Positions 4,596 to 19,340 are shown, numbered from the stretch's first letter. The stretch: DNA of 64,000 bases from Tyzzerella sp. (GCA_017416155.1 JAFQDE010000010.1:1476-65475); one strand, 5' to 3'. The notes: generated by a model from the sequence alone, not told the origin. Program-made: numbers and translations.

Positions 4596-5720
4596 CTACT
4601 CCTCTTTCTCGAACGCTTCTGCCACTTCGGCCAGCAATTCTCTTATCTTCAAATGTTGCGGACATATTTTCTCGCATTTTCCGCACTTCACGCAATCCGA
4701 TGCTTTTCCCCCATTCTGTGTATGTATTTCATAGTAACAGTCGCTATTCCAATAATTGTGAATGGTTTTCGCATTGAGGTCGGAAAACAGGTCCGGTATC
4801 GCTATCTTTTGCGGACAGACATCCATGCAATATTTACACCCGGTACATGGAATAAGTCCCTGCGCACTGATGATATCGCGAACTTTAAATACAGCTTCAA
4901 ATTCCTCTTCACTTAATGGTTGGAAATCCTTCATGTAACTGATATTATCGTTCATCTGCTCCATGTTACTCATTCCGGAAAGTACCATCATGATTTGTTC
5001 AAAGCTTGCAGCAAATCGAATCGCGTAACTTGCATTACTTCCTCCCTTGAGTTCGTCAAAGATTTTCTGAGCTTCGGCTGGAATGTTTACCAGGTTACCG
5101 CCTTTTACCGGTTCCATAACAATCACAGGCTTCCCATGTTTCACACATACTTCATAGCATTTTTTCGACTCAATACCGATATCATCATAATCCAGATAGT
5201 TGAACTGAATCTGCACCACTTCTATTTCCGGATACTCAGTCAGTATCTGCTCTAAGACCTCGGCTTTATCGTGGAATGAAATTCCCACATGTTTTACTCT
5301 TCCCTGCTTCTTAAATTCAAACGCGTGTTCATACGCTCTACACTTTTTATATTTGGCAAAAAGTCTTGCATCCTGTGCATGAAGCAAGTAAAAATCAAAA
5401 TAGTCCACGCCACAGATTTCCAGTTGTTTTTCAAAAAGCGGGATGATTTCCTCCTCTTTTTCGAAGAAATATGTTGTCAACTTATTTACTAAGACAAAGT
5501 CCTCTCTTGGATAACGTTTCACAAGGCATTCCCGTAATGTAGGCTCACTTTTCTCGTTGATATATGGGTGTGCAGTATCAAAATAGTTGAATCCATTTTC
5601 CATAAAGCTGTCTATCATTCTAGTTGTTTCTTCATAATCCACCTCATTATCTTTCATTGGAAATCGCATACAACCGAATCCAAAGTTCCCTTTAATTTTA
5701 TCAAAGAATTTATTTTCCAT
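4596..5720 (-). CDS. Aldo/keto reductase with C-terminal 4Fe-4S dicluster domain
   Basis: GFGCMRFP, YFDTAHPY; CTGCKYC..CP and CVKCGKCEKICP. Confidence 0.9.
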   Translation of the reverse strand: MENKFFDKIKGNFGFGCMRFPMKDNEVDYEETTRMIDSFMENGFNYFDTAHPYINEKSEPTLRECLVKRYPREDFVLVNKLTTYFFEKEEEIIPLFEKQLEICGVDYFDFYLLHAQDARLFAKYKKCRAYEHAFEFKKQGRVKHVGISFHDKAEVLEQILTEYPEIEVVQIQFNYLDYDDIGIESKKCYEVCVKHGKPVIVMEPVKGGNLVNIPAEAQKIFDELKGGSNASYAIRFAASFEQIMMVLSGMSNMEQMNDNISYMKDFQPLSEEEFEAVFKVRDIISAQGLIPCTGCKYCMDVCPQKIAIPDLFSDLNAKTIHNYWNSDCYYEIHTQNGGKASDCVKCGKCEKICPQHLKIRELLAEVAEAFEKEE

Positions 5721-5856
5721 AAGCCAATACCTCCTCTCATCTCTAGCATACAACGAATAACTCCCTTTTTGCAATAACAGATTTCTTGCATTTCCCATAT
5801 AATTGGAGTATTCTATTGTTAATAAGTATCGTTAATTTTTACTGGAGGGAAAACAA

Positions 5857-7281
5857 ATGAAAAGAACTACTTCAGACATCATGAAAATGATTCAGGAACA
5901 GGACATTAAGATGGTTGACTTTAAAATTGTTGACATCAATGGTCAGTTCCGCCACGTGACGATTCCGGCTTCTCAATTTACAGAAGACACGATGAAAAAC
6001 GGAATCGGCTTTGACGCTTCTAACTACGGATATGCCGTAGTTGAAAAGAGTGATATGGTATTTATCCCTGATTTGGATACTGCACTCATTGACCCATACT
6101 GCGAGATACCGACGCTCTCTATCACAGGTAATGCAATGGTCATCGATTATCCGGAAAATCGTCCTTTAGATCAGTATCCGAGAAACATTGTTCTTGCAGC
6201 TGAACAGTATATGAAAGATTGTAACATTGCCGATACCATGTTAATCTTACCGGAATTCGAATTTCATATGTTCGACCAGGCAGGGTGGTCTATAACACCT
6301 GATTCTATTGGATTCTCAGTAGACTGCGAACAGGCGTATTGGAACAGTGCGAACCAAGGCCTGGGATGCGTCGTTCCTCATCAGAAAAACTATCACGTTG
6401 CAAAACCATTCGACCGCACTTATGAGTGCCGTTCGGAAATGTGTTTAGAATTGGAAAAGATGGGTATCGAAATTAAATACCATCATCCGGAAGTTGGTGC
6501 TGCCGGTCAGTTTGAAATCGAACCGATGCTTGGGCAAATGTCTAAGATGGCAGACAACACCATGATGATTAAATACGTTATCCACAATACAGCACAGAAA
6601 TACGGCATGACAGCAACATTTATGCCGAAGCCGGTATATCAGGAAGCTGGAAACGGAATGCATGTACATATGTTACTTCTCAAGGATGGAGAGCCTGTTT
6701 TCTCTGATGATGAAGGATACTCACATCTGAGTAAAACAGCTCACTACTTTATGGGCGGCTTATTGAAGCATATTTCTTCACTCTGTGCTATTACGAACCC
6801 AAGTACGAACTCGTTTAAGAGATTAGTACCTGGTTTTGAGGCGCCTGTAACAGTTGGTTATGCTACATCTAACCGCAGTGCAGTTATTCGTATTCCTGCA
6901 TATGCGAAATCTCCGAAGCTTCGCCGTTTCGAGATTCGTAACCCAGATGCAACTTGTAACCCATACCTTTGCTACGCTGCCCTTCTTATGGCAGGTATCG
7001 ACGGTATCAAGAATAAGATTGATCCACATGCAAACGGCTGGGGACCATACGACATGAACCTTTATTCATTGTCCCCGGAAGAAAAAGCAAAATTATCTTC
7101 TCTCCCAACCCGTTTGGAAGATGCTTTGGATGCACTCGAGGCTGACCATGACTACTTGACAGCAGGCGGAGTATTCCCGGAACACTTAATTAAGAACTTC
7201 ATCGCTATGAAGAGAAAAGAGTGCTTCGAGATGTCTAAGATTCCACATCCGGCAGAATTTGATAAATACTTCAACTTATAA
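5857..7281 (+). CDS. glnA: Glutamine synthetase type I
   Basis: HHPEVG..GQFEI, ATFMPKP, GNGMHVH, RLVPGFEAP, NRSAVIRIP, RFEIRNPD. Confidence 0.95.
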   Translation: MKRTTSDIMKMIQEQDIKMVDFKIVDINGQFRHVTIPASQFTEDTMKNGIGFDASNYGYAVVEKSDMVFIPDLDTALIDPYCEIPTLSITGNAMVIDYPENRPLDQYPRNIVLAAEQYMKDCNIADTMLILPEFEFHMFDQAGWSITPDSIGFSVDCEQAYWNSANQGLGCVVPHQKNYHVAKPFDRTYECRSEMCLELEKMGIEIKYHHPEVGAAGQFEIEPMLGQMSKMADNTMMIKYVIHNTAQKYGMTATFMPKPVYQEAGNGMHVHMLLLKDGEPVFSDDEGYSHLSKTAHYFMGGLLKHISSLCAITNPSTNSFKRLVPGFEAPVTVGYATSNRSAVIRIPAYAKSPKLRRFEIRNPDATCNPYLCYAALLMAGIDGIKNKIDPHANGWGPYDMNLYSLSPEEKAKLSSLPTRLEDALDALEADHDYLTAGGVFPEHLIKNFIAMKRKECFEMSKIPHPAEFDKYFNL

Positions 7282-8988: not shown

Positions 8989-9714
8989 CTATTCGTTTTC
9001 TGTGAGCCGACTGTCTCCGCTCTTATAATCGATTGTAATTCCCGGCTGTGCATTATACACATACACATTGAAACACACGCCCCTTCCGTCATCCTCCACA
9101 GAGTAGGCCTCCATCTGCACTCCGCTGGCAACTAGGTTTCTTCCCTCAAAATGAGGTGTTACGCGATACATGACATGATTGCCTGTCTCTTCTACATATT
9201 CTGCCACCATATTTTCAAACGGAAGCATTCCTTCCACGTTCAGATAGCGAGTTCCGGTAATCAAATTCTTTGTGTTGGCATTCTCACCAGTCAATTGATA
9301 CCCAATCAAATGACAGCGATTGTAGAGATATTTTCCATCTACAATATCGTACTTGATTGTATGCCAACCTGACGGCTTCACTTGTCCAATTGCACCGCGC
9401 TCTTCCGTGGGCATAATTTCTAGACCAACACACGCATACGCAACGCCACACCTACCTAATTCATCCAGCTTGGCATACTTTTCAAAGCATTCGGTTGTTA
9501 AGTTATCGAACTCGGGCTTATTGCCGTTCATTTCAACATATGGCTTGTCGGAATACTCTTCTATTGCTGAGTAATTCTGTTCCGATGCACCTGGTAGAAC
9601 GCCTACCTTTATTAGTTCGCTCCTCACAACTAGGAACGCTAGAATGATATATATGGCTATCCTAATCCATTTGGATGCTTTCGCTGGTTTTGGTCTTTGA
9701 TTTTTCACTTTCAT
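8989..9714 (-). CDS. Membrane-anchored DNA/RNA non-specific endonuclease (DNA-entry nuclease-like)
   Basis: LDELGRCG, YNRCHLIG, NLITGTRYLN motifs; N-terminal TM. Confidence 0.85.
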   Translation of the reverse strand: MKVKNQRPKPAKASKWIRIAIYIILAFLVVRSELIKVGVLPGASEQNYSAIEEYSDKPYVEMNGNKPEFDNLTTECFEKYAKLDELGRCGVAYACVGLEIMPTEERGAIGQVKPSGWHTIKYDIVDGKYLYNRCHLIGYQLTGENANTKNLITGTRYLNVEGMLPFENMVAEYVEETGNHVMYRVTPHFEGRNLVASGVQMEAYSVEDDGRGVCFNVYVYNAQPGITIDYKSGDSRLTENE

Positions 9715-9791
9715 TACTTCCTTACATTTCATCGTTAAGAAAATTTTATCATAGATATGAATGAACTTCAAAAGATTTCTTATCACAAAAA

Positions 9792-9819
9792 TGGTAGAGA
9801 ACTAAATTGTTCTCCACCA
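9792..9819 (-). terminator. Terminator overlapping the end of the displaced spoIIID 3' half
   Basis: Minus strand TGGTGGAGAAC-loop-GTTCTCTACCA followed by TTTTT. Confidence 0.6.
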
Positions 9820-9963
9820 ATTCCCCTTCTGCTCCATATGTAAATACTTTTCCTTCGTTGCCATTCCTCCGCGGATATGACGCTCGGATTTGTTCACGTC
9901 TAAAACCTTTCTCGCCTCTGATGCGAGAGTTGGGTTAATTTGCGACAGACGCTCAGCAACATC
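9802..9963 (-). pseudogene. spoIIID: Displaced 3' half of spoIIID (from codon D40)
   Basis: DVAERLSQINPTLASEARKVLDVNKSERHIRGGMATKEKYLHM aligns with residues 40 onward of the SpoIIID at 14310-14585; no SpoIIID N-terminus upstream. Confidence 0.9.
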
Positions 9964-9975
9964 TGCTTGTGTCAA
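9961..9975 (-). repeat. Putative att junction (downstream end of islet)
   Basis: Minus strand TTGACACAAGCAGAT immediately before GTT GCT GAG (VAE). Confidence 0.6.
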
Positions 9976-10056
9976 TATATAACCAAACATTTTTATTTTG
10001 ATTTCCGCTCTTTTAAATAATTTTAGTTTTTGCCTTACCACCAACTTTTTTCTAAA

Positions 10057-11928
10057 TTATAAAGCGATAATCTCTCTTATAACCGCGAAAATTTTTAAAA
10101 ACTCAGTAAAATCGAATTTTCGTTCATTGCTAGCATCATCTAAAACCATCTGTACAAAATCCTCTTTTGACAATGCTATAGATTGTTTGAATTCTGGATC
10201 ATCTTTTAAACTATACACTTTTTCATCTATAATGCCGTTTACCTTTACTTTGTTTTGTATCCCCTTAAATCTCGTTTGATATTTTTGGCATCTGCTAATT
10301 CCACTATCATAGAATTCCTCACCCAAAAATAATCTTCGTCCATTTTTATCTGCCATCAACAGTTGCTCTTTTTTATAATAATGTTCTATAGAAGTATATG
10401 TCCCATAAATTTCCTCATTTACCATTGGAATAGAAAAAGCATAAATGTTCTTTGATATTTGCACGTAAGATGAACCGTCTTTGGAAGTGGATTTAGATAT
10501 ATCTGCATTGTCTCTATCAAACATGCCAATTATTTTTCTATTCGGAGAAATAATTGAAAATTGATTTAACATTTTTATTAAAGTTTCATCACCCATTGTA
10601 TCTTCATATTCATAAAACTCTACTGCCAAATCATTTATACCCAATGCTTTCATTGCAACCTTCAAATGTTTCCAATCAGTTTTACCTTCTGTTATTACTA
10701 AAGGTTTGGTCGACGCTTCCATATCCGACACGAGTTTATGATATTTCTTCGCAAATTGTTCGTTTTCTGATACAAGAATCTGATACACTTCTTCAAACAA
10801 ATCATTACTCTGCGGTTTACAGGATAGGCCACCATTATCCATATCATATATCGAATAGGAAACTTCTTTTTCACTAGAAAATCCTAAATTCAAAAATGGA
10901 GAATGCGAAGTCAGAATAAACTGTACATTCGGAAATAATTTGATTAATTTTGGCAATACATCCTTTTGCATTTTTATATGTAGGTGTTTATCTATTTCAT
11001 CTACTAAAACAATTCCTTTCACTTTATCAAATGTCGTACTTAATCTATCTGCTTGTCTGATTATTTCGCAAAACAGACCTATTAATGCTAGTTCACCAGA
11101 GGACATATTAAATATGGACGGATATATCCATTCCCCATCCGATTGTTTTACAATTTGTATACGTGTTGCACCATTCTGACGAGGTCCTATTCCTAATCTG
11201 ACTGGTGTGTTAACCTTTGTTGCTAACAAGGTCGTAAAGATTCTATTTAGTTGAACAATCATATTACGTGTCTCATCTTCATATAATGAACTATCTAAAA
11301 TAATGTCCATTATCCAATTGGCAATTTCAGGTATACCTGATGTTACCTCAATCGGGTTTATAAGATATCCTGTGAATTCTGAATCTTTCTTAAAATTGAG
11401 CGATATGGTATATGGGTCATTCAGATATCCTGGTTGCTCATATCGATATGCTGGAAAATATGTCAATATATTTTGCTCAAAAAATTTAGTTATCTCTACT
11501 GTTTCAGATATATTGAAGTATTTTAATACATTACGCGTTTTCATTCTATTTTTTATTTCTGCATAAGGAATCGCATTCTTAATCTGCAATGAATTGTTAT
11601 ACTCTTCCTCATCATTAAGGAGTCTCATGTCTATATAGTCTATAATTTTACCAGCATTTTCAAACCGTAAATATACAAAAGAATTTTTACTTGGATCCAT
11701 CATTGTGAGATTAGACGAAACTCGATAAAACTTACTACTAACTCCTTCAAACTCATTTGAGAAAGCTTTCTTTGCTAACTCATAAAATGCATCTGTCACA
11801 TATGAAAGAATAGTGGTCTTTCCAGCACCATTAATACCAGAAAAGATAGATATATTAGCATCACCTAAAGATATCTTTAAATTTTCAAATGGTGCCCTAT
11901 TATAAAACTGAAATTCTATCAATCGCAT
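10057..11928 (-). CDS. ABC/AAA_21-type ATPase fused to a C-terminal TOPRIM domain (OLD/PARIS-like architecture)
   Basis: Walker A GINGAGKT, signature MSSGE, Walker B VLVDEIDKHLH, H-loop TSHSP; TOPRIM motifs ITEGKTD, MFDRD and IEHYY. Confidence 0.8.
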   Translation of the reverse strand: MRLIEFQFYNRAPFENLKISLGDANISIFSGINGAGKTTILSYVTDAFYELAKKAFSNEFEGVSSKFYRVSSNLTMMDPSKNSFVYLRFENAGKIIDYIDMRLLNDEEEYNNSLQIKNAIPYAEIKNRMKTRNVLKYFNISETVEITKFFEQNILTYFPAYRYEQPGYLNDPYTISLNFKKDSEFTGYLINPIEVTSGIPEIANWIMDIILDSSLYEDETRNMIVQLNRIFTTLLATKVNTPVRLGIGPRQNGATRIQIVKQSDGEWIYPSIFNMSSGELALIGLFCEIIRQADRLSTTFDKVKGIVLVDEIDKHLHIKMQKDVLPKLIKLFPNVQFILTSHSPFLNLGFSSEKEVSYSIYDMDNGGLSCKPQSNDLFEEVYQILVSENEQFAKKYHKLVSDMEASTKPLVITEGKTDWKHLKVAMKALGINDLAVEFYEYEDTMGDETLIKMLNQFSIISPNRKIIGMFDRDNADISKSTSKDGSSYVQISKNIYAFSIPMVNEEIYGTYTSIEHYYKKEQLLMADKNGRRLFLGEEFYDSGISRCQKYQTRFKGIQNKVKVNGIIDEKVYSLKDDPEFKQSIALSKEDFVQMVLDDASNERKFDFTEFLKIFAVIREIIAL

Positions 11929-11947
11929 ATAAATCTCTCCTTTTATC

Positions 11948-12649
11948 TTATTCTGTAAACTTATTTTTTTCTTCCATCGGCAAATACTTCACTAGTTCTT
12001 CCACCAACTCATACACCTTTGTTCCCGGTGCAATTTCCGTCGGTGTTTTTCCCTCATGTTCTTTTATAATTCGTTTCGCATATCGAATTGCTAACTTTGG
12101 ATTCCCCTTATCTAAAAGAATATCAAAAATGTCTTTCATATTCTTCTGATATTTGCCGATTCCCAACTCTCGAAACTTATCATTCAGAAAAGAGATATAC
12201 TCTGCTCGATGATTATTCGAAGTGTAGTAGGCAAAATGCAGCATGAACCAAAATTCTATGCATTCGTTACTCCATCCTGCATGATACTGCAATTCTGGAT
12301 TTTCCTTATTAAGGCTATCAATTCTTTCCACCACACCATTGAAACGCTCTGGGGGGAAACTATCCTTATCATATAGACACCAAACTTGCCCTTTTCTAAC
12401 ATTGTTTGCTTTAACATATTCCTCTGCCTTACCAATGACACGCATAGTTTCTGCTTGACATGGTTCAATCTCAATCAAAACCATATCCTTATATACTGGG
12501 TTCTCTTCAATTAACTTTTTAAACCCTTCAAAATATAATGGTTCTGTCTGTTGACCTTCACAGAAAATGTAGTAACGATATTTCTTCAGTTCCAAATGTT
12601 CTTGTCGACGTTTCTTTTTCCATTTCTCCATTCCGGCTTTTTTAGGCAT
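11948..12649 (-). CDS. rloB: RloB-family protein (TOPRIM-like)
   Basis: IFCEGQQTEPLYF, VWCLYDKD, SNECIEFWFMLHF and PGTKVYELVEEL motifs; overlaps the upstream ATPase stop. Confidence 0.85.
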   Translation of the reverse strand: MPKKAGMEKWKKKRRQEHLELKKYRYYIFCEGQQTEPLYFEGFKKLIEENPVYKDMVLIEIEPCQAETMRVIGKAEEYVKANNVRKGQVWCLYDKDSFPPERFNGVVERIDSLNKENPELQYHAGWSNECIEFWFMLHFAYYTSNNHRAEYISFLNDKFRELGIGKYQKNMKDIFDILLDKGNPKLAIRYAKRIIKEHEGKTPTEIAPGTKVYELVEELVKYLPMEEKNKFTE

Positions 12650-13865
12650 TGATTTTCCCCCAATCTATAATTCTTTTGAGGTATGGGTCAGCACCGTACT
12701 TACCTTCAAGATATTGTTTATCAAATTTGGCATCCTTTCGCACAGATTCACCCTTTTCGTTCTTGAATTCTACAAGTGAATAAAGCTTTGAATTTTCTGC
12801 TTTCCCCTTTGCCACAAACCAGATTTCATCTCTTCTAAACACCTCACTGTTCATAGTTGATAAATCATGTGATGTGAATATCAGTTGTGCGTTATTCTTA
12901 TTCACATTCAAATCTGTAAACATATTTATGATATGTTTCAGTAGAATCGGATGTATCTTAGCATCTAATTCATCTATTACAAGAACATTGCCCTCTATCA
13001 AACTGGTTGCGATGAACGGTAAAAGCCCAAACAACTTTCTCGTACCACTAGACTCTTCTTCAAGATCAAGTTCTTCTTCATATCCATCCACAAAATGCTT
13101 GGTATAAACATCAAATCTATTTTCGTTTTCTTCCACACGAAAATTAACAATGTTCAAATCCATTTCTTGTATCATCTGCAGCATTAACTGTTTGATGTTT
13201 TTCGTGTGTTCCACTGCCACTACCAATTCTTGTATTGGATTGCCATAATTCAAGAAATCAATTCCTTCATCAAACCATTCCAATACATCCCTTACTACCT
13301 CGTTTTTACTATATGCGATTCCCAAATACGATAAAAATGGCAAAGTGTCTGACAGTTCATCACTAGCTGTCAATTTTGTGAAATCCCCTTTTAACTCGAT
13401 ATTATTATTATCTCGTTCAAAAAGACCCGAACGTCTTTTAGTACTTAACTTAACTCGATCAAGACTTTCATACACAACTTTTTCTTTCTTGACATACAAT
13501 TGATATCTATACTCTGCTAGTTTTGTACGGAAAAAGATTTCAAACTCTGTTGGTGCATTCTTGTTTTCCTCTGTAAACTTAAATGGTTCGATATTTACGT
13601 TTTTGCGAAACATTAATATGCCTGCGTTATTTGTAGATGCATAAAGCGGACGCAATACCTTACCTACTAATGTTTGTAAAGCCTTTAACACATTTGACTT
13701 GCCACCACCATTCGGACCATATAGTGCAGAAACCGGCAAAAATTCTTCACCGTCTATATCTCTGATTACTTTATCTTCATGTTCTGAAATAGAGGTTGCT
13801 TGCATATCAAACGTCACTTCATCACGAATACTTTTATAATTTTTAACTGTAAATTGGCATAACAT
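12642..13865 (-). CDS. AAA_21 ABC-type ATPase (RloA/AbiL-associated)
   Basis: FTVKNYKSI, YGPNGGGKSN, ESSGT, VIDELDAKIHP, FTSHD, YLEGKYGADP. Confidence 0.85.
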   Translation of the reverse strand: MLCQFTVKNYKSIRDEVTFDMQATSISEHEDKVIRDIDGEEFLPVSALYGPNGGGKSNVLKALQTLVGKVLRPLYASTNNAGILMFRKNVNIEPFKFTEENKNAPTEFEIFFRTKLAEYRYQLYVKKEKVVYESLDRVKLSTKRRSGLFERDNNNIELKGDFTKLTASDELSDTLPFLSYLGIAYSKNEVVRDVLEWFDEGIDFLNYGNPIQELVVAVEHTKNIKQLMLQMIQEMDLNIVNFRVEENENRFDVYTKHFVDGYEEELDLEEESSGTRKLFGLLPFIATSLIEGNVLVIDELDAKIHPILLKHIINMFTDLNVNKNNAQLIFTSHDLSTMNSEVFRRDEIWFVAKGKAENSKLYSLVEFKNEKGESVRKDAKFDKQYLEGKYGADPYLKRIIDWGKINA

Positions 13866-13997
13866 AATTGTTACCTCCATTTTGTTTCTCTTTTCAATAA
13901 CTATTATACTCTATTTTTGAATTTTGTAAACTGTATTTGAGATTTTTTCTCATAAATTCATTTGAAATATCACAAATAAAAAATTAGACCAAAATTA

Positions 13998-14026
13998 GGC
14001 GTGTAATACTCAACGTATTGCACGCC
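13998..14026 (-). terminator. Hairpin after the DUF6870-like ORF
   Basis: GGCGTGTAATAC-N5-GTATTGCACGCC. Confidence 0.5.
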
Positions 14027-14044
14027 CATAAAGTACGATTATTA

Positions 14045-14281
14045 TCAGGTTGAAGAAACCATAATGCCAAAGATATCATTGATACTTTCTCCATCCGAAT
14101 ATTTATTCTGAACCACAATATCCCCCCTACGATGAACATACCAATTAATATTGTTGTTTAAGAGATAGTTCAGCAATTCTTCAACACTATTTGTTTCTGG
14201 GATATTAATCTCTCTCATATCTACCAAGTCTTCTTTGACAACAGTTTTACAATCTACTTTTTTCATCTCTTCTAGTGTCAT
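14045..14281 (-). CDS. Small DUF6870-like protein (family usually found beside recombinase genes of integrative elements)
   Basis: MTLEEMKKVDCKTVVKEDLVDMREINI pattern; GGAGG RBS; family recognised from memory. Confidence 0.55.
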   Translation of the reverse strand: MTLEEMKKVDCKTVVKEDLVDMREINIPETNSVEELLNYLLNNNINWYVHRRGDIVVQNKYSDGESINDIFGIMVSST

Positions 14282-14303
14282 TATTATTTCCTCCATAAAA
14301 ATA

Positions 14304-14323
14304 GGGGAATCAAACGACTCCCC
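14304..14323 (-). terminator. Terminator at the end of the reconstituted spoIIID
   Basis: Minus strand GGGGAGTC-GTTT-GATTCCCC then TATTTTT. Confidence 0.55.
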
Positions 14324-14585
14324 ACCAATTCTTTTTCTCCATATGTAAATATTTCTCTTTAGTTGCAAGGCCACCACGTATATGTCTCTCTGACTTATTA
14401 ATATCTAAAACTTTACGTACCTCTGCAGCCAAAGTTGGATTGATGGCTGGCAATCTGTCTTGACAATCCTTGTGTACGGTTGATTTGCTAATGCCAAATG
14501 CCTTGGCTGTTTGCCTCACTGTTGCGTTATTCTCTATGATATAATAGGCAATTTCAATTGCTCGTTCCTCAATGTAATCCCTCAT
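14310..14585 (-). CDS. spoIIID: Sporulation transcription factor SpoIIID (chromosomal 5' half plus islet-borne 3' half)
   Basis: ATVRQTAKAFGISKSTVHKD HTH and NKSERHIRGGLATKEKY. Confidence 0.95.
   Translation of the reverse strand: MRDYIEERAIEIAYYIIENNATVRQTAKAFGISKSTVHKDCQDRLPAINPTLAAEVRKVLDINKSERHIRGGLATKEKYLHMEKKNWWGVV
14460..14475 (-). repeat. Putative att junction within spoIIID
   Basis: Minus strand ACACAAGGATTGTCAA, centred on codons H38-D40. Confidence 0.6.
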
Positions 14586-14640
14586 AAAACCCCTGCATAA
14601 ATCACTTTTTTACAATCTATGCAGGGAAATTATAAGTTAT

Positions 14641-15303
14641 TCACAAAGTTTCCCGGATAATTTCCACAGGCGCAGAATCTTCTGTGCATACAGAAATCAT
14701 GTGTCCTTTCCATTCCACTGAATACAGATAGCATGTCTGCATGTTTCCATCTCGAAGTACCTTTGCATAACCATCGCCACCTGACAATATACAATCTTTA
14801 TCAACTACCACCTCATACGCCTCAAATCGCAATCCCATACCTTCTCCAGTCATCTTGACATAGCTTTCCTTCATTGTCCATAATTCAAAAAATTTATGGT
14901 TGTATTCCCCTTCAGAGAACTGGCTCAGATACGCTTGCTCACCATCAGAAAAGCACCTCTCCGACACACCCTTCGGTGCCTCGCGAAGTTTCTCTATATC
15001 ACAGCCAACAGGCTTGTCGCTAACTACACAGATAACTAAATCACCTGAATGAGACAAGTTGAATTCAAGTCCTTCGACCATAGGTTTTCCGTGTTCCCCC
15101 ACATACACCTGCGAATCTTGCATATGATAAAGGGCTAGGACTTTCTGTAACAAAAGTCCTACCCCCATACTTTGTCTTCTGCCTTTTTCTTGTTTCAGAT
15201 TATGAATCCGCTGTTGCCTGTCCATGGGAAGTCTATGTAACAACTCCAAATTCGACATCGGATCCGGCAGATTTGATATATCTGCCACATATATCTTTAC
15301 CAT
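14641..15303 (-). CDS. Sfp-type 4'-phosphopantetheinyl transferase
   Basis: HGKP, FNLSHSG, VGCDIE, WTMKESYVK. Confidence 0.9.
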   Translation of the reverse strand: MVKIYVADISNLPDPMSNLELLHRLPMDRQQRIHNLKQEKGRRQSMGVGLLLQKVLALYHMQDSQVYVGEHGKPMVEGLEFNLSHSGDLVICVVSDKPVGCDIEKLREAPKGVSERCFSDGEQAYLSQFSEGEYNHKFFELWTMKESYVKMTGEGMGLRFEAYEVVVDKDCILSGGDGYAKVLRDGNMQTCYLYSVEWKGHMISVCTEDSAPVEIIRETL

Positions 15304-18319: not shown

Positions 18320-18350
18320 AATACTTTTCTCCTTTTACTGTACTTAGCAA

Positions 18351-19340
18351 TTATAAAATCTTAGAAATCTTTAACTGATATTCCGGAATCTCTTTTTGCA
18401 TCTTGAGTGCATCGTTAATATCAAAATCAATAAACTGTGCATTTTGATATCCAACCACACGATTTTTCTTGCCATCAATCAAGCAATCCACCGCTTTCGA
18501 TCCCAAAACAGATGCATATACTCTGTCTTTGACAGTTGGGCTTCCGCCACGTTGCAAATGACCGAGAATCGTTGCCCTCGTCTCTACTCCGGTTGCCTCT
18601 TCAATTCTCTTTGCCATGTTGATAGAATCACCAACACCCTCTGCATTAATGATAATATAATGCTTCTTGCCATTCTTACGATTCTCGATGATATCATTGA
18701 TAATTGCCTGTTCGTCATATTCATGTTCTTCCGGCAAAAGGATATATTCTGCACCATTTGCAATACCACACCAAAGCGCAAGATATCCTGCATCTCTTCC
18801 CATCACCTCAACAATACTGCATCTCTCATGTGATGTTGATGTATCACGAATCTTATCAATTGCCTCCATGGCTGTGTTTGCTGCTGTATCAAAACCAATT
18901 GTAAAATCTGTACATGCAATATCCAAGTCGATTGTTGCCGGGATACCGATAACGTTAATTCCGTATTCTGCAAGCTTCTGTGCTCCGGCAAAGGAACCAT
19001 CACCTCCGATAACAACCAATCCTTGAACACCATATTTTTTCAATATCGTTGCGGCCTTTCTCTGTCCCTCAGGGGTACGCATCTGCTGACTTCTGGCAGT
19101 CTGCAGAATTGTTCCTCCGCGCTGAATCGTATCAGCAACATCCTTTCTCGACATATCTATAATCTCTTCACGAAGCAAACCGTGATAACCACGTCTGATT
19201 CCAAGGACATTTAGTCCATTCGCCAAAGCTGTTCTCACAACTGCACGTACTGCCGCATTCATTCCTGGCGCATCACCACCGCTCGTTAAAACTCCAATTG
19301 TATGAATTGGTTCTCTCATTTCTTGTTCTTTCATAGTCAT
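18351..19340 (-). CDS. pfkA: ATP-dependent 6-phosphofructokinase
   Basis: TSGGDAPGMNA, GGDGS, VMGR, LGHLQRGG. Confidence 0.95.
   Translation of the reverse strand: MTMKEQEMREPIHTIGVLTSGGDAPGMNAAVRAVVRTALANGLNVLGIRRGYHGLLREEIIDMSRKDVADTIQRGGTILQTARSQQMRTPEGQRKAATILKKYGVQGLVVIGGDGSFAGAQKLAEYGINVIGIPATIDLDIACTDFTIGFDTAANTAMEAIDKIRDTSTSHERCSIVEVMGRDAGYLALWCGIANGAEYILLPEEHEYDEQAIINDIIENRKNGKKHYIIINAEGVGDSINMAKRIEEATGVETRATILGHLQRGGSPTVKDRVYASVLGSKAVDCLIDGKKNRVVGYQNAQFIDFDINDALKMQKEIPEYQLKISKIL

Follow-up and report, generated by a model that had tools for sequence, protein, structure and literature searches.

A defence islet beside a chimeric spoIIID in Tyzzerella sp. may be the immobilised remnant of serine-recombinase elements

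Here we describe a defence islet lodged at the sporulation gene spoIIID in a 64,000-nt stretch of Tyzzerella sp. DNA (GCA_017416155.1 JAFQDE010000010.1:1476-65475; hereafter the window), taken from a metagenome-assembled bin of 2.07 Mb that comprises 56 contigs and is 84% complete. All islet genes and both copies of spoIIID that bracket them lie on the minus strand. Judged from segment-wise comparison with relatives, the working spoIIID is a chimera of a native 5' part and a foreign 3' half, and a fragment at the far end of the islet is the displaced native 3' half. The islet itself bears, as far as junctions and gene content can tell, marks of two families of elements that encode large serine recombinases (LSRs). 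In the reading that we put forward, to which we give about an even chance of being right, it would be an immobilised mosaic remnant of an element with a DUF6870 gene and three tandem LSRs that recombined with spoIIID at the Lys39/Asp40 codons. The assignment of the right junction to this second, DUF6870/triple-LSR family is what is new at this locus.

Results

Two copies of spoIIID, one of them rebuilt

An earlier note, made from the window's sequence alone, had described a full spoIIID at one end of the islet and a diverged second copy of its 3' half at the other, each ending in a terminator hairpin that overlaps the codons for NWW; both copies and both hairpins are borne out (Table 1). The SpoIIID profile matches the helix-turn-helix as well as the C-terminal basic region of the full gene, and the second copy, hereafter the relic, shares 39 of 53 amino acids with residues 40-91 of the full protein (E = 3e-29). 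Over codons 42-85 the two copies are 67% identical in nucleotides, with a longest exact match of 13 nt.

Table 1. Features of the spoIIID locus, in window coordinates (domain searches with Pfam, defence genes with PADLOC)
Feature	Position	Strand	Details
Full spoIIID	14310-14585	-	91 codons; Pfam SpoIIID (PF12116) E = 3e-42 over residues 2-82/91
5' part of spoIIID, assigned as native	14469..14585	-	Codons 1-39, with own start and upstream region
3' half of spoIIID, assigned as foreign	14310..14468	-	Codons 40-91 and stop ('DCQDRLPAIN...' allele), fused in frame
Relic, assigned as displaced native spoIIID 3' half	9802..9963	-	Codons 40-92 and stop
Terminator-like hairpin of rebuilt spoIIID	14304..14323	-	Overlaps NWW and stop codons; -14.2 kcal/mol
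Terminator hairpin at relic, assigned as native	9792..9819	-	Overlaps NWW and stop codons; -19 kcal/mol, z = -4.8
Orphan DUF6870 gene	14045..14281	-	Pfam DUF6870 E = 5.6e-12; 28 nt past spoIIID stop
AbiLi, ABC-type ATPase	12642..13880	-	PADLOC AbiLi 1.5e-87; Pfam AAA_21 1.9e-30
Promoter-like site of AbiLi	13930-13903	-
AbiLii, RloB-like	11948..12649	-	Pfam RloB 5.8e-39; PADLOC AbiLii 1e-29
623-aa single-chain ABC-ATPase with Toprim-like C-terminus (OLD-like candidate nuclease)	10057..11928	-	Pfam AAA_21 1.1e-14; PADLOC PtuA-type ATPase 1.5e-31
Element-arm motif TTGACACAAGCA	9964..9975	-	Abuts Asp40 codon (GAT); putative attR remnant of DUF6870/triple-LSR family
4'-Phosphopantetheinyl transferase (PPTase) gene, native upstream neighbour	14641..15303	-	Pfam ACPS 2.5e-16; same place in G031, G006
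DNA/RNA non-specific endonuclease gene, native downstream neighbour	8989..9786	-	Pfam Endonuclea_NS_2 1.1e-23

Against G031, the nearest sampled congener and the reference for our segment-wise identities, the full gene shows 85.1% nucleotide identity in codons 1-38 (85.1% also to G008, 76.3% to G006), with 16 nucleotide differences in synonymous codons and a single non-synonymous codon. The foreign half, measured over codons 42-85, is 66.7% identical to G031 and finds its best match, at 76.5%, in G006. Indeed, a search of 185,579 species genomes for CQD-type junction patterns returned HKDCQDRLP, besides in the window's own genome, from G006 only, where the homology to the foreign half ends at the stop codon. 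The relic, for its part, is 89.4% identical in nucleotides to the G031 3' half and matches it at 52 of 53 amino acids, and its homology to G031 and to the metagenome contig L058 passes through the terminator, to 9784-9787. GC content at third codon positions (GC3) is 0.44 in the 5' half, 0.31 in the foreign half, 0.49 in the relic, 0.25-0.35 in the cargo genes and mostly 0.39-0.43 in the flanking genes. The upstream flank (PPTase and a trigger-factor-like gene) is collinear with that of G031 at 79% nucleotide identity, and codons 1-39, when joined to the relic, give a 92-aa open reading frame (ORF) identical to the G031 SpoIIID at 90 of 92 positions. It is from these identities, together with GC3, the similarity of the flanks and the rejoined ORF, that we infer the chimeric gene and its displaced native half. 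The two breakpoints coincide, the left switch falling between Val37 and Cys41 and the relic starting at Asp40. With 14 nucleotide differences from G031 in synonymous codons and one in a non-synonymous codon, the relic would appear not to have drifted for long.

The polarity could be reversed, with the full, CQD-bearing gene being native and the 9802-9963 fragment foreign cargo from a G031-like donor; aberrantly excised elements can bring with them the flank of a previous host. We hold this to be most improbable, as the fragment runs through its terminator into a flank common to G031 and L058 before the native endonuclease gene, as its GC3 is nearest to that of the 5' half and the flanks while that of the CQD half falls in the cargo range, and as G031, whose own 3' half matches the fragment, is also the nearest relative in the 5' half and upstream flank. 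So fragmented and incomplete a metagenome bin might also be suspected of an assembly error that fused two co-occurring Faecalimonas strains within spoIIID, the more so because species differ little in the 5' half of this gene. This seems scarcely credible, however, given that 20 contigs of various origin (NCBI, ENA and Logan; the longest 102 kb) encode the identical 91-aa protein, that the copies share no more than 13 nt of exact identity, and that the right junction has the proper form of a join between element and host; the duplication is thus no assembly artefact, as the earlier note had argued from the divergence of the copies. In other assemblies, near-identical CQD-type 3' halves are joined to slightly different 5' halves.

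No terminator-like site is predicted between 10057 and 9819, and the relic's hairpin is the first such site past the last islet gene; islet transcripts probably end there, to go by these predictions. The relic also sits inside an 80-codon ORF (9802-10044, minus strand) that opens with a TTG in element-derived sequence and has an internal ATG at codon 19; by eye, an obvious ribosome-binding site was not seen for it. At the full gene, a hairpin with a 16-pair stem (14590-14627, minus strand) stands immediately 5' of the start codon, with a likely ribosome-binding site (AGGGG) within its 3' arm and a T-run that overlaps the ATG. Nucleotide similarity to relatives continues across this hairpin, to about 14626-14643, and it may act as the PPTase terminator or as a regulator of spoIIID translation.

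spoIIID is an attachment site of single-LSR elements

The sole published notice that we found of spoIIID as a target is one sentence on a skin-like element in the spoIIID of Ruminiclostridium cellulolyticum (Galperin et al. 2022, bioRxiv 10.1101/2022.02.25.481979). The gene is a genuine attachment site, as had been proposed for the window: LSR elements split it at codons 38-40 in relatives, within the genus and beyond. Among 36 other genomes of the genus, at least ten have separated spoIIID halves only and six have a full gene with an extra 5' fragment; a full gene with a 3' fragment was found in the window's genome only. In G001, G017, G032 and G035, as well as in G040 from another family, a single contig carries both halves, separated by 4.5-22 kb, and in each of these a co-oriented LSR of ~520 aa (Resolvase, Recombinase, Zn_ribbon_recom) abuts the 3' half. 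The junctions of these single-LSR elements read ..GTA CAT ATG GAT GTA ACA AAA TAG.. at attL (arm GATGTAACAAAATAGAACGG) and ..GTAACGACCAMA CAT AAR GAT GT.. at attR, and they place the crossover in the His38 codon. Metagenome contigs contribute at least 20 further single-LSR spoIIID junctions with varied cargo. In the islet, an nhmmer profile built from 19 attR arms gave nothing upstream of the relic, and motif searches for the GTAACGACCAMA and GATGTAACAAAATAGAACGG arms were blank throughout.

Empty sites reading HKDVAERL, which the insertion proposal called for, do exist among relatives with matching flanks. In G031 the PPTase gene is followed by an intact spoIIID reading HKDVAERLSQ, and L058 carries an intact spoIIID, the remnant of a Schlafen/AlbA_2-type gene and then the same non-specific endonuclease gene (76% nucleotide identity). 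Healed loci are found as well: G029, G015 and G013 have a full spoIIID and a 5' relic, self-copies that are 98-100% identical, and G029 retains a 31-aa LSR remnant. Decaying LSRs were seen in L097 and L119.

Several further arrangements at spoIIID came to light. At L097 4369-4678 the spoIIID 3' half stands behind only the last ~42 codons of an LSR, with an AbiL cassette upstream; this appears to be a dead element, the gene possibly split for good. L054 (G018:C52) has a frameshifted AbiLi remnant (5221-5620; residues 275-406, 61-85% amino-acid identity) directly upstream of an intact spoIIID and is another decayed islet at this gene; beyond the remnant lie ORFs of 203 and 559 aa that are PLD-like and SWIM-zinc-finger-like by eye only. 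In L056 (G103:C52), a diverged full-length spoIIID paralogue (63% amino-acid identity) lies ~170 nt upstream of a split spoIIID (18633-18875, 18339-18461), whose 3' half (1591-1740) follows an LSR with 47% identity to the genus type 16.6 kb away; the arrangement suggests a split gene with a spare copy next to it. Genes with Schlafen/AlbA_2 and HATPase_c_4 domains recur beside spoIIID (L006 11-1417, L058 1686-2153, L047 5044-6483, L032 4021-5706, L033 6517-8028), as chromosomal neighbours in G031, L058 (the remnant) and the virome contig L047 and as single-LSR cargo in G035 and G032. The single-LSR element of L084 carries, between AbiL and the recombinase (4607-6276), a nucleotidyltransferase-like gene followed by a Cap15-type cyclic-dinucleotide receptor effector (Pfam 1.7e-19), and also a gene for a colicin-DNase/WHH toxin beside one for a DUF6985 protein. 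Finally, full-length spoIIID homologues occur on the Clostridium perfringens phages vB_CpeS-CP51 and phi3626, on Bacillus phages and on large Clostridium botulinum/sporogenes plasmids, and could serve as templates for exchange with the gene on the chromosome; phage-collection matches to spoIIID that came from faecal viromes proved to be ordinary host fragments with intact genes.

The right junction matches a second element family

At its right end the islet joins an arm of another kind to the native 3' half. The window reads ATTGACACAAGCA followed directly by GATGTT (9976-9958), and four IMG/VR contigs (L164, L170, L171 and L172) have TTGACACCAGCA followed by GA at the matching position, beside three different host spoIIID halves. 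The IMG/VR junctions take the form CTTGACACCAGCA followed by GAC or GAT, L164 continuing from CTTGACACCAGCA with GACGTT. The arm TTGACACMAGCA, joined to the Asp40 codon, is present in the window at 11 of 12 positions, or 13 of 14 when the following GA is counted. L164 gives the order of this family as MazF, DUF6870, three tandem LSRs (559, 574 and 524 aa) and the spoIIID 3' half from Asp40; in all four contigs the three LSRs end ~60 nt upstream of the junction, and DUF6870 lies ahead of them in L164 and L171. More widely, DUF6870 homologues stand directly upstream of an LSR gene at 4/4 loci in the genus and at 12/13 in other Lachnospiraceae genera. The window's DUF6870 gene is orphaned, with no LSR after it: the three tandem LSRs that would lie between it and the junction are absent, and AbiLi, AbiLii and the ATPase-Toprim gene are found there instead. 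By its arm, then, the right junction is best assigned to the DUF6870/triple-LSR family, whose crossover, on these alignments, must fall within the codon for Asp40, at a distance of 4-6 nt from where the single-LSR elements cross over.

A 20-nt pattern for this junction occurs once in the window's genome; 400 other Lachnospiraceae genomes lack it. It also matched four viral contigs; the matches in L165, L166 and L168, which have neither spoIIID nor an LSR, were put down to chance. Similarity between the two window copies extends at the right junction to an upstream ACACAAG and then CA before GAT, a stretch that related elements mark as element arm. The CA is conserved in four related element junctions, and the idea that it is a locking 2-bp insertion is not supported. 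A dyad in the reconstructed attP (TATATATTGACA-CAAGGAT-TGTCAAGACAGA, 9/12) was likewise dropped, because 4.5% of random pairs reach it and because it requires deleting this conserved CA. Immediately upstream of the DUF6870/triple-LSR module of L164 we noted a MazF/PemK-like toxin gene (764-1174), recognised by eye from its N-terminal sequence.

These junctions bear on whether any site-specific event took place. A CQD-type relative with downstream defence genes might have contributed the islet by homologous recombination in the 5' half and an illegitimate join, the breakpoints being coincidental; the CQD-type allele is an ordinary chromosomal gene in G006, and the regions flanking spoIIID vary among relatives. 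We judge this very unlikely, since both breakpoints fall within codons 37-41, the site of two LSR families, and since chance would not be expected to give a match of 11 of 12 arm positions to independent elements; the 20-nt pattern was absent from the 400 other Lachnospiraceae genomes. Furthermore, G006 has neither DUF6870 nor AbiL downstream, its homology ending at the stop codon.

Defence cargo without a recombinase

The 4.5 kb bracketed by the spoIIID copies have a GC content of 0.29-0.38, compared with about 0.37-0.45 in the flanks. The matches of its ORFs to AbiLi, AbiLii/RloB and an ATPase-Toprim protein uphold the earlier label of an AT-rich defence islet. The adjacent ATPase and RloB-like genes, which overlap by 8 nt, match both AbiL profiles. 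In the 623-aa protein, residues 372-621 match PADLOC RT-Toprim_I-C (1.7e-24), among retron-type Toprim models only, with no Pfam Toprim match at E <= 0.01; its gene had no counterpart among the related elements that we examined. Both AbiL and the ATPase-Toprim protein are presumably directed against phage. The AbiL cassette (13954-11930) is 68-73% identical in nucleotides and 69-81% in amino acids to the cassettes of single-LSR spoIIID elements, the commoner of the two families, and it is found in the same order and orientation in the LSR elements L084, L090, L097, L117 and L132 and at the healed locus L072.

No recombinase gene or remnant was found in the islet by tblastn, even at E = 50, a weak LSR2/Toprim similarity (E = 0.015) being treated as noise. 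The other LSRs of the host genome are only 24-25% identical to the spoIIID type, and the islet is therefore unable to excise now; the two spoIIID halves are probably also too diverged for efficient homologous deletion. The earlier proposal of gene replacement is largely supported. A 3' half on the inserted side, foreign by identity and codon composition, bears it out, and the excision that had been considered alongside it has no present counterpart, the recombinase being gone.

How the foreign half may have arrived

A foreign half, an orphan DUF6870 without recombinase and an AbiL cassette of single-LSR type together suggest that the islet is a fixed mosaic fossil. Its left end runs from native codons 1-39 through the foreign 3' half with its own terminator to the DUF6870 gene, and at its right end the arm of the triple-LSR family is joined to the native 3' half. 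The route that we favour from this order starts with an element circle that would have captured a spoIIID 3' half and its terminator from an earlier, CQD-allele host, joined next to DUF6870. Recombination of such a circle at the core of this lineage's spoIIID would give the order now seen. The foreign half would have come in as part of the inserted DNA, so that insertion would have exchanged the C-terminal half of spoIIID and left the gene unbroken; later deletions and cargo exchange would have removed the recombinases. Arrival of the half with the element, as opposed to a later repair, is favoured by the tight adjacency to DUF6870, by the cargo-like GC3 and by the near-identical CQD halves on differing 5' halves.

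The cell would probably express the chimeric SpoIIID from the native upstream region and promoter, with no need for developmental excision, and would keep two defence systems at a now immobile locus. The CQD variant is presumably functional, because G006 was found to have no spoIIID other than an allele of this junction type. The host genome also has SpoIVA and Spo0A, which makes it plausible that sporulation is under selection.

Several observations weigh against this history. Beyond the proximal 12-14 nt, the window arm agrees with the family at only 8 of 15 positions; the window's DUF6870 shares only 41% identity with its counterpart in L164; and in L164 and L171 it is cargo, not a spoIIID half, that lies upstream of DUF6870. 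Canonical serine integrases do not recombine an attR-like site with attB, and the captured circle, with one element arm and one host-type arm, is attR-like and hence unfit for a canonical LSR reaction with attB. The AbiL cassette points to the other family, and at least one further recombination event is needed. Moreover, searching with the junction-proximal LSR, we recovered partial IMG/VR contigs only, and no complete triple-LSR element at spoIIID with its left end. The same query, scored in 399 Clostridia genomes, gave best matches of 33-37% identity, and none of the eight loci fetched had an adjoining spoIIID. DUF6870 relatives were found neither in a metagenome scan nor in phages or plasmids (tblastn), and a free or complete parent element carrying the foreign half was not recovered.

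Perhaps, then, the gene was first hit and later healed: a canonical element, triple- or single-LSR, would have split spoIIID, and a separate event would have restored it with a foreign 3' half while the recombinases decayed. Possible routes are repair of a recombinase-made break from a foreign spoIIID template and an attL x attR reaction with incoming DNA. Split spoIIID genes are known to heal in the genus, as G029 (with its LSR remnant), G015 and G013 attest, LSRs are decaying in L097 and L119, and spare templates exist on phages and plasmids; a break at the core would also explain why the switch falls exactly at codons 38-40. The three healed 5'-relic forms that we checked used self-copies, however, at 98-100% identity compared with 67% between the halves here, and the DUF6870 hallmark 28 nt past a foreign half of cargo-like GC3 makes joint arrival the simpler account. 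Healing after a hit is accordingly a serious possibility, to be held tentatively and on balance rather unlikely.

Discussion

The locus can be set beside several known systems. Its closest formal likeness is to e14 at icd in Escherichia coli; there, the 3' end of the gene is provided by the element, and a 163-bp pseudo-3' fragment is displaced (PMC6379469, citing Hill et al. 1989). Here, too, an element-side 3' copy is fused in frame and the displaced native 3' end is found at the other boundary; as with e14 and phage 21 at icd, the element-side 3' end keeps the target gene whole, and the displaced fragments are even of similar size (163 bp of icd, 162 bp here). Both e14 and phage 21 are excisable elements that use tyrosine integrases. 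The window's site, by contrast, belongs to serine-recombinase elements, its recombinase is lost, its halves are 67% identical, and its target is a developmental regulator.

LSR elements within mother-cell sporulation genes are well documented, namely skin in sigK, gin in gerE of Bacillus cereus (three serine recombinases, GirA/B/C, with GirX) and SPbeta in spsM (PMC5595907, PMC5025042, PMC6957869). The window's relatives G001, G017, G032, G035 and G040, with spoIIID split likewise, resemble skin and gin. The window's own spoIIID differs from these in being an uninterrupted 91-codon ORF with no LSR, for which excision is neither needed nor possible. With the gene intact and no recombinase present, the locus does not behave as a working intervening element, and excision during sporulation, which would need a recombinase, is not expected at the window.

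The triple module of L164 and L170-L172 beside spoIIID recalls the serine-integrase triplets of streptococcal integrative and conjugative elements, three tandem co-oriented integrases at the element end that insert site-specifically inside genes with very short repeats (Ambroset et al. 2016, PMC4701971). The targets there are mutT, traG and hsdM, and the window, unlike those elements, has lost the triplet and keeps the DUF6870 gene and the junction arm. A further parallel is offered by 'grounded' (defective, immobilised) prophages and the defence islands of integration hotspots, in which the integrase is lost and host-useful cargo stays at the former attachment site (PMC6379469). The window's AbiL genes and candidate OLD-like ATPase-Toprim gene are fixed at a former attachment site in the same manner; what sets them apart is that grounding is coupled to the chimeric rebuilding of the target gene and that the cargo is a mosaic from two families sharing one target.

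It is possible, though we regard it as unlikely, that some DUF6870/triple-LSR elements are natural 'gene-swapping' integrators whose attachment site contains a working spoIIID 3' half. If so, integration would replace the C-terminal, DNA-contacting half of SpoIIID with the element's version, the CQD allele lying beside the recognition helix, and would free the host from developmental excision, possibly with altered SpoIIID targets or with a gene that neither recombinase family could hit again. Repeated insertions would then account for the near-identical CQD halves that are joined to slightly different 5' halves.

Elements that split sporulation genes are usually viewed as stable, with a host that depends on their timed excision. 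This locus points to a way out, in which a xenologous half would complete the regulator, the recombinases would be lost and the cargo would stay behind as an immobile defence islet. Two unrelated serine-recombinase modules appear to use one short conserved stretch of spoIIID, codons 37-41, and their cargo seems to mix there; a shared target with such mixing would be a concrete mechanism for the formation of a defence hotspot next to a core developmental gene. The chimeric SpoIIID is furthermore a natural domain-swap experiment on a small and well-studied regulator.

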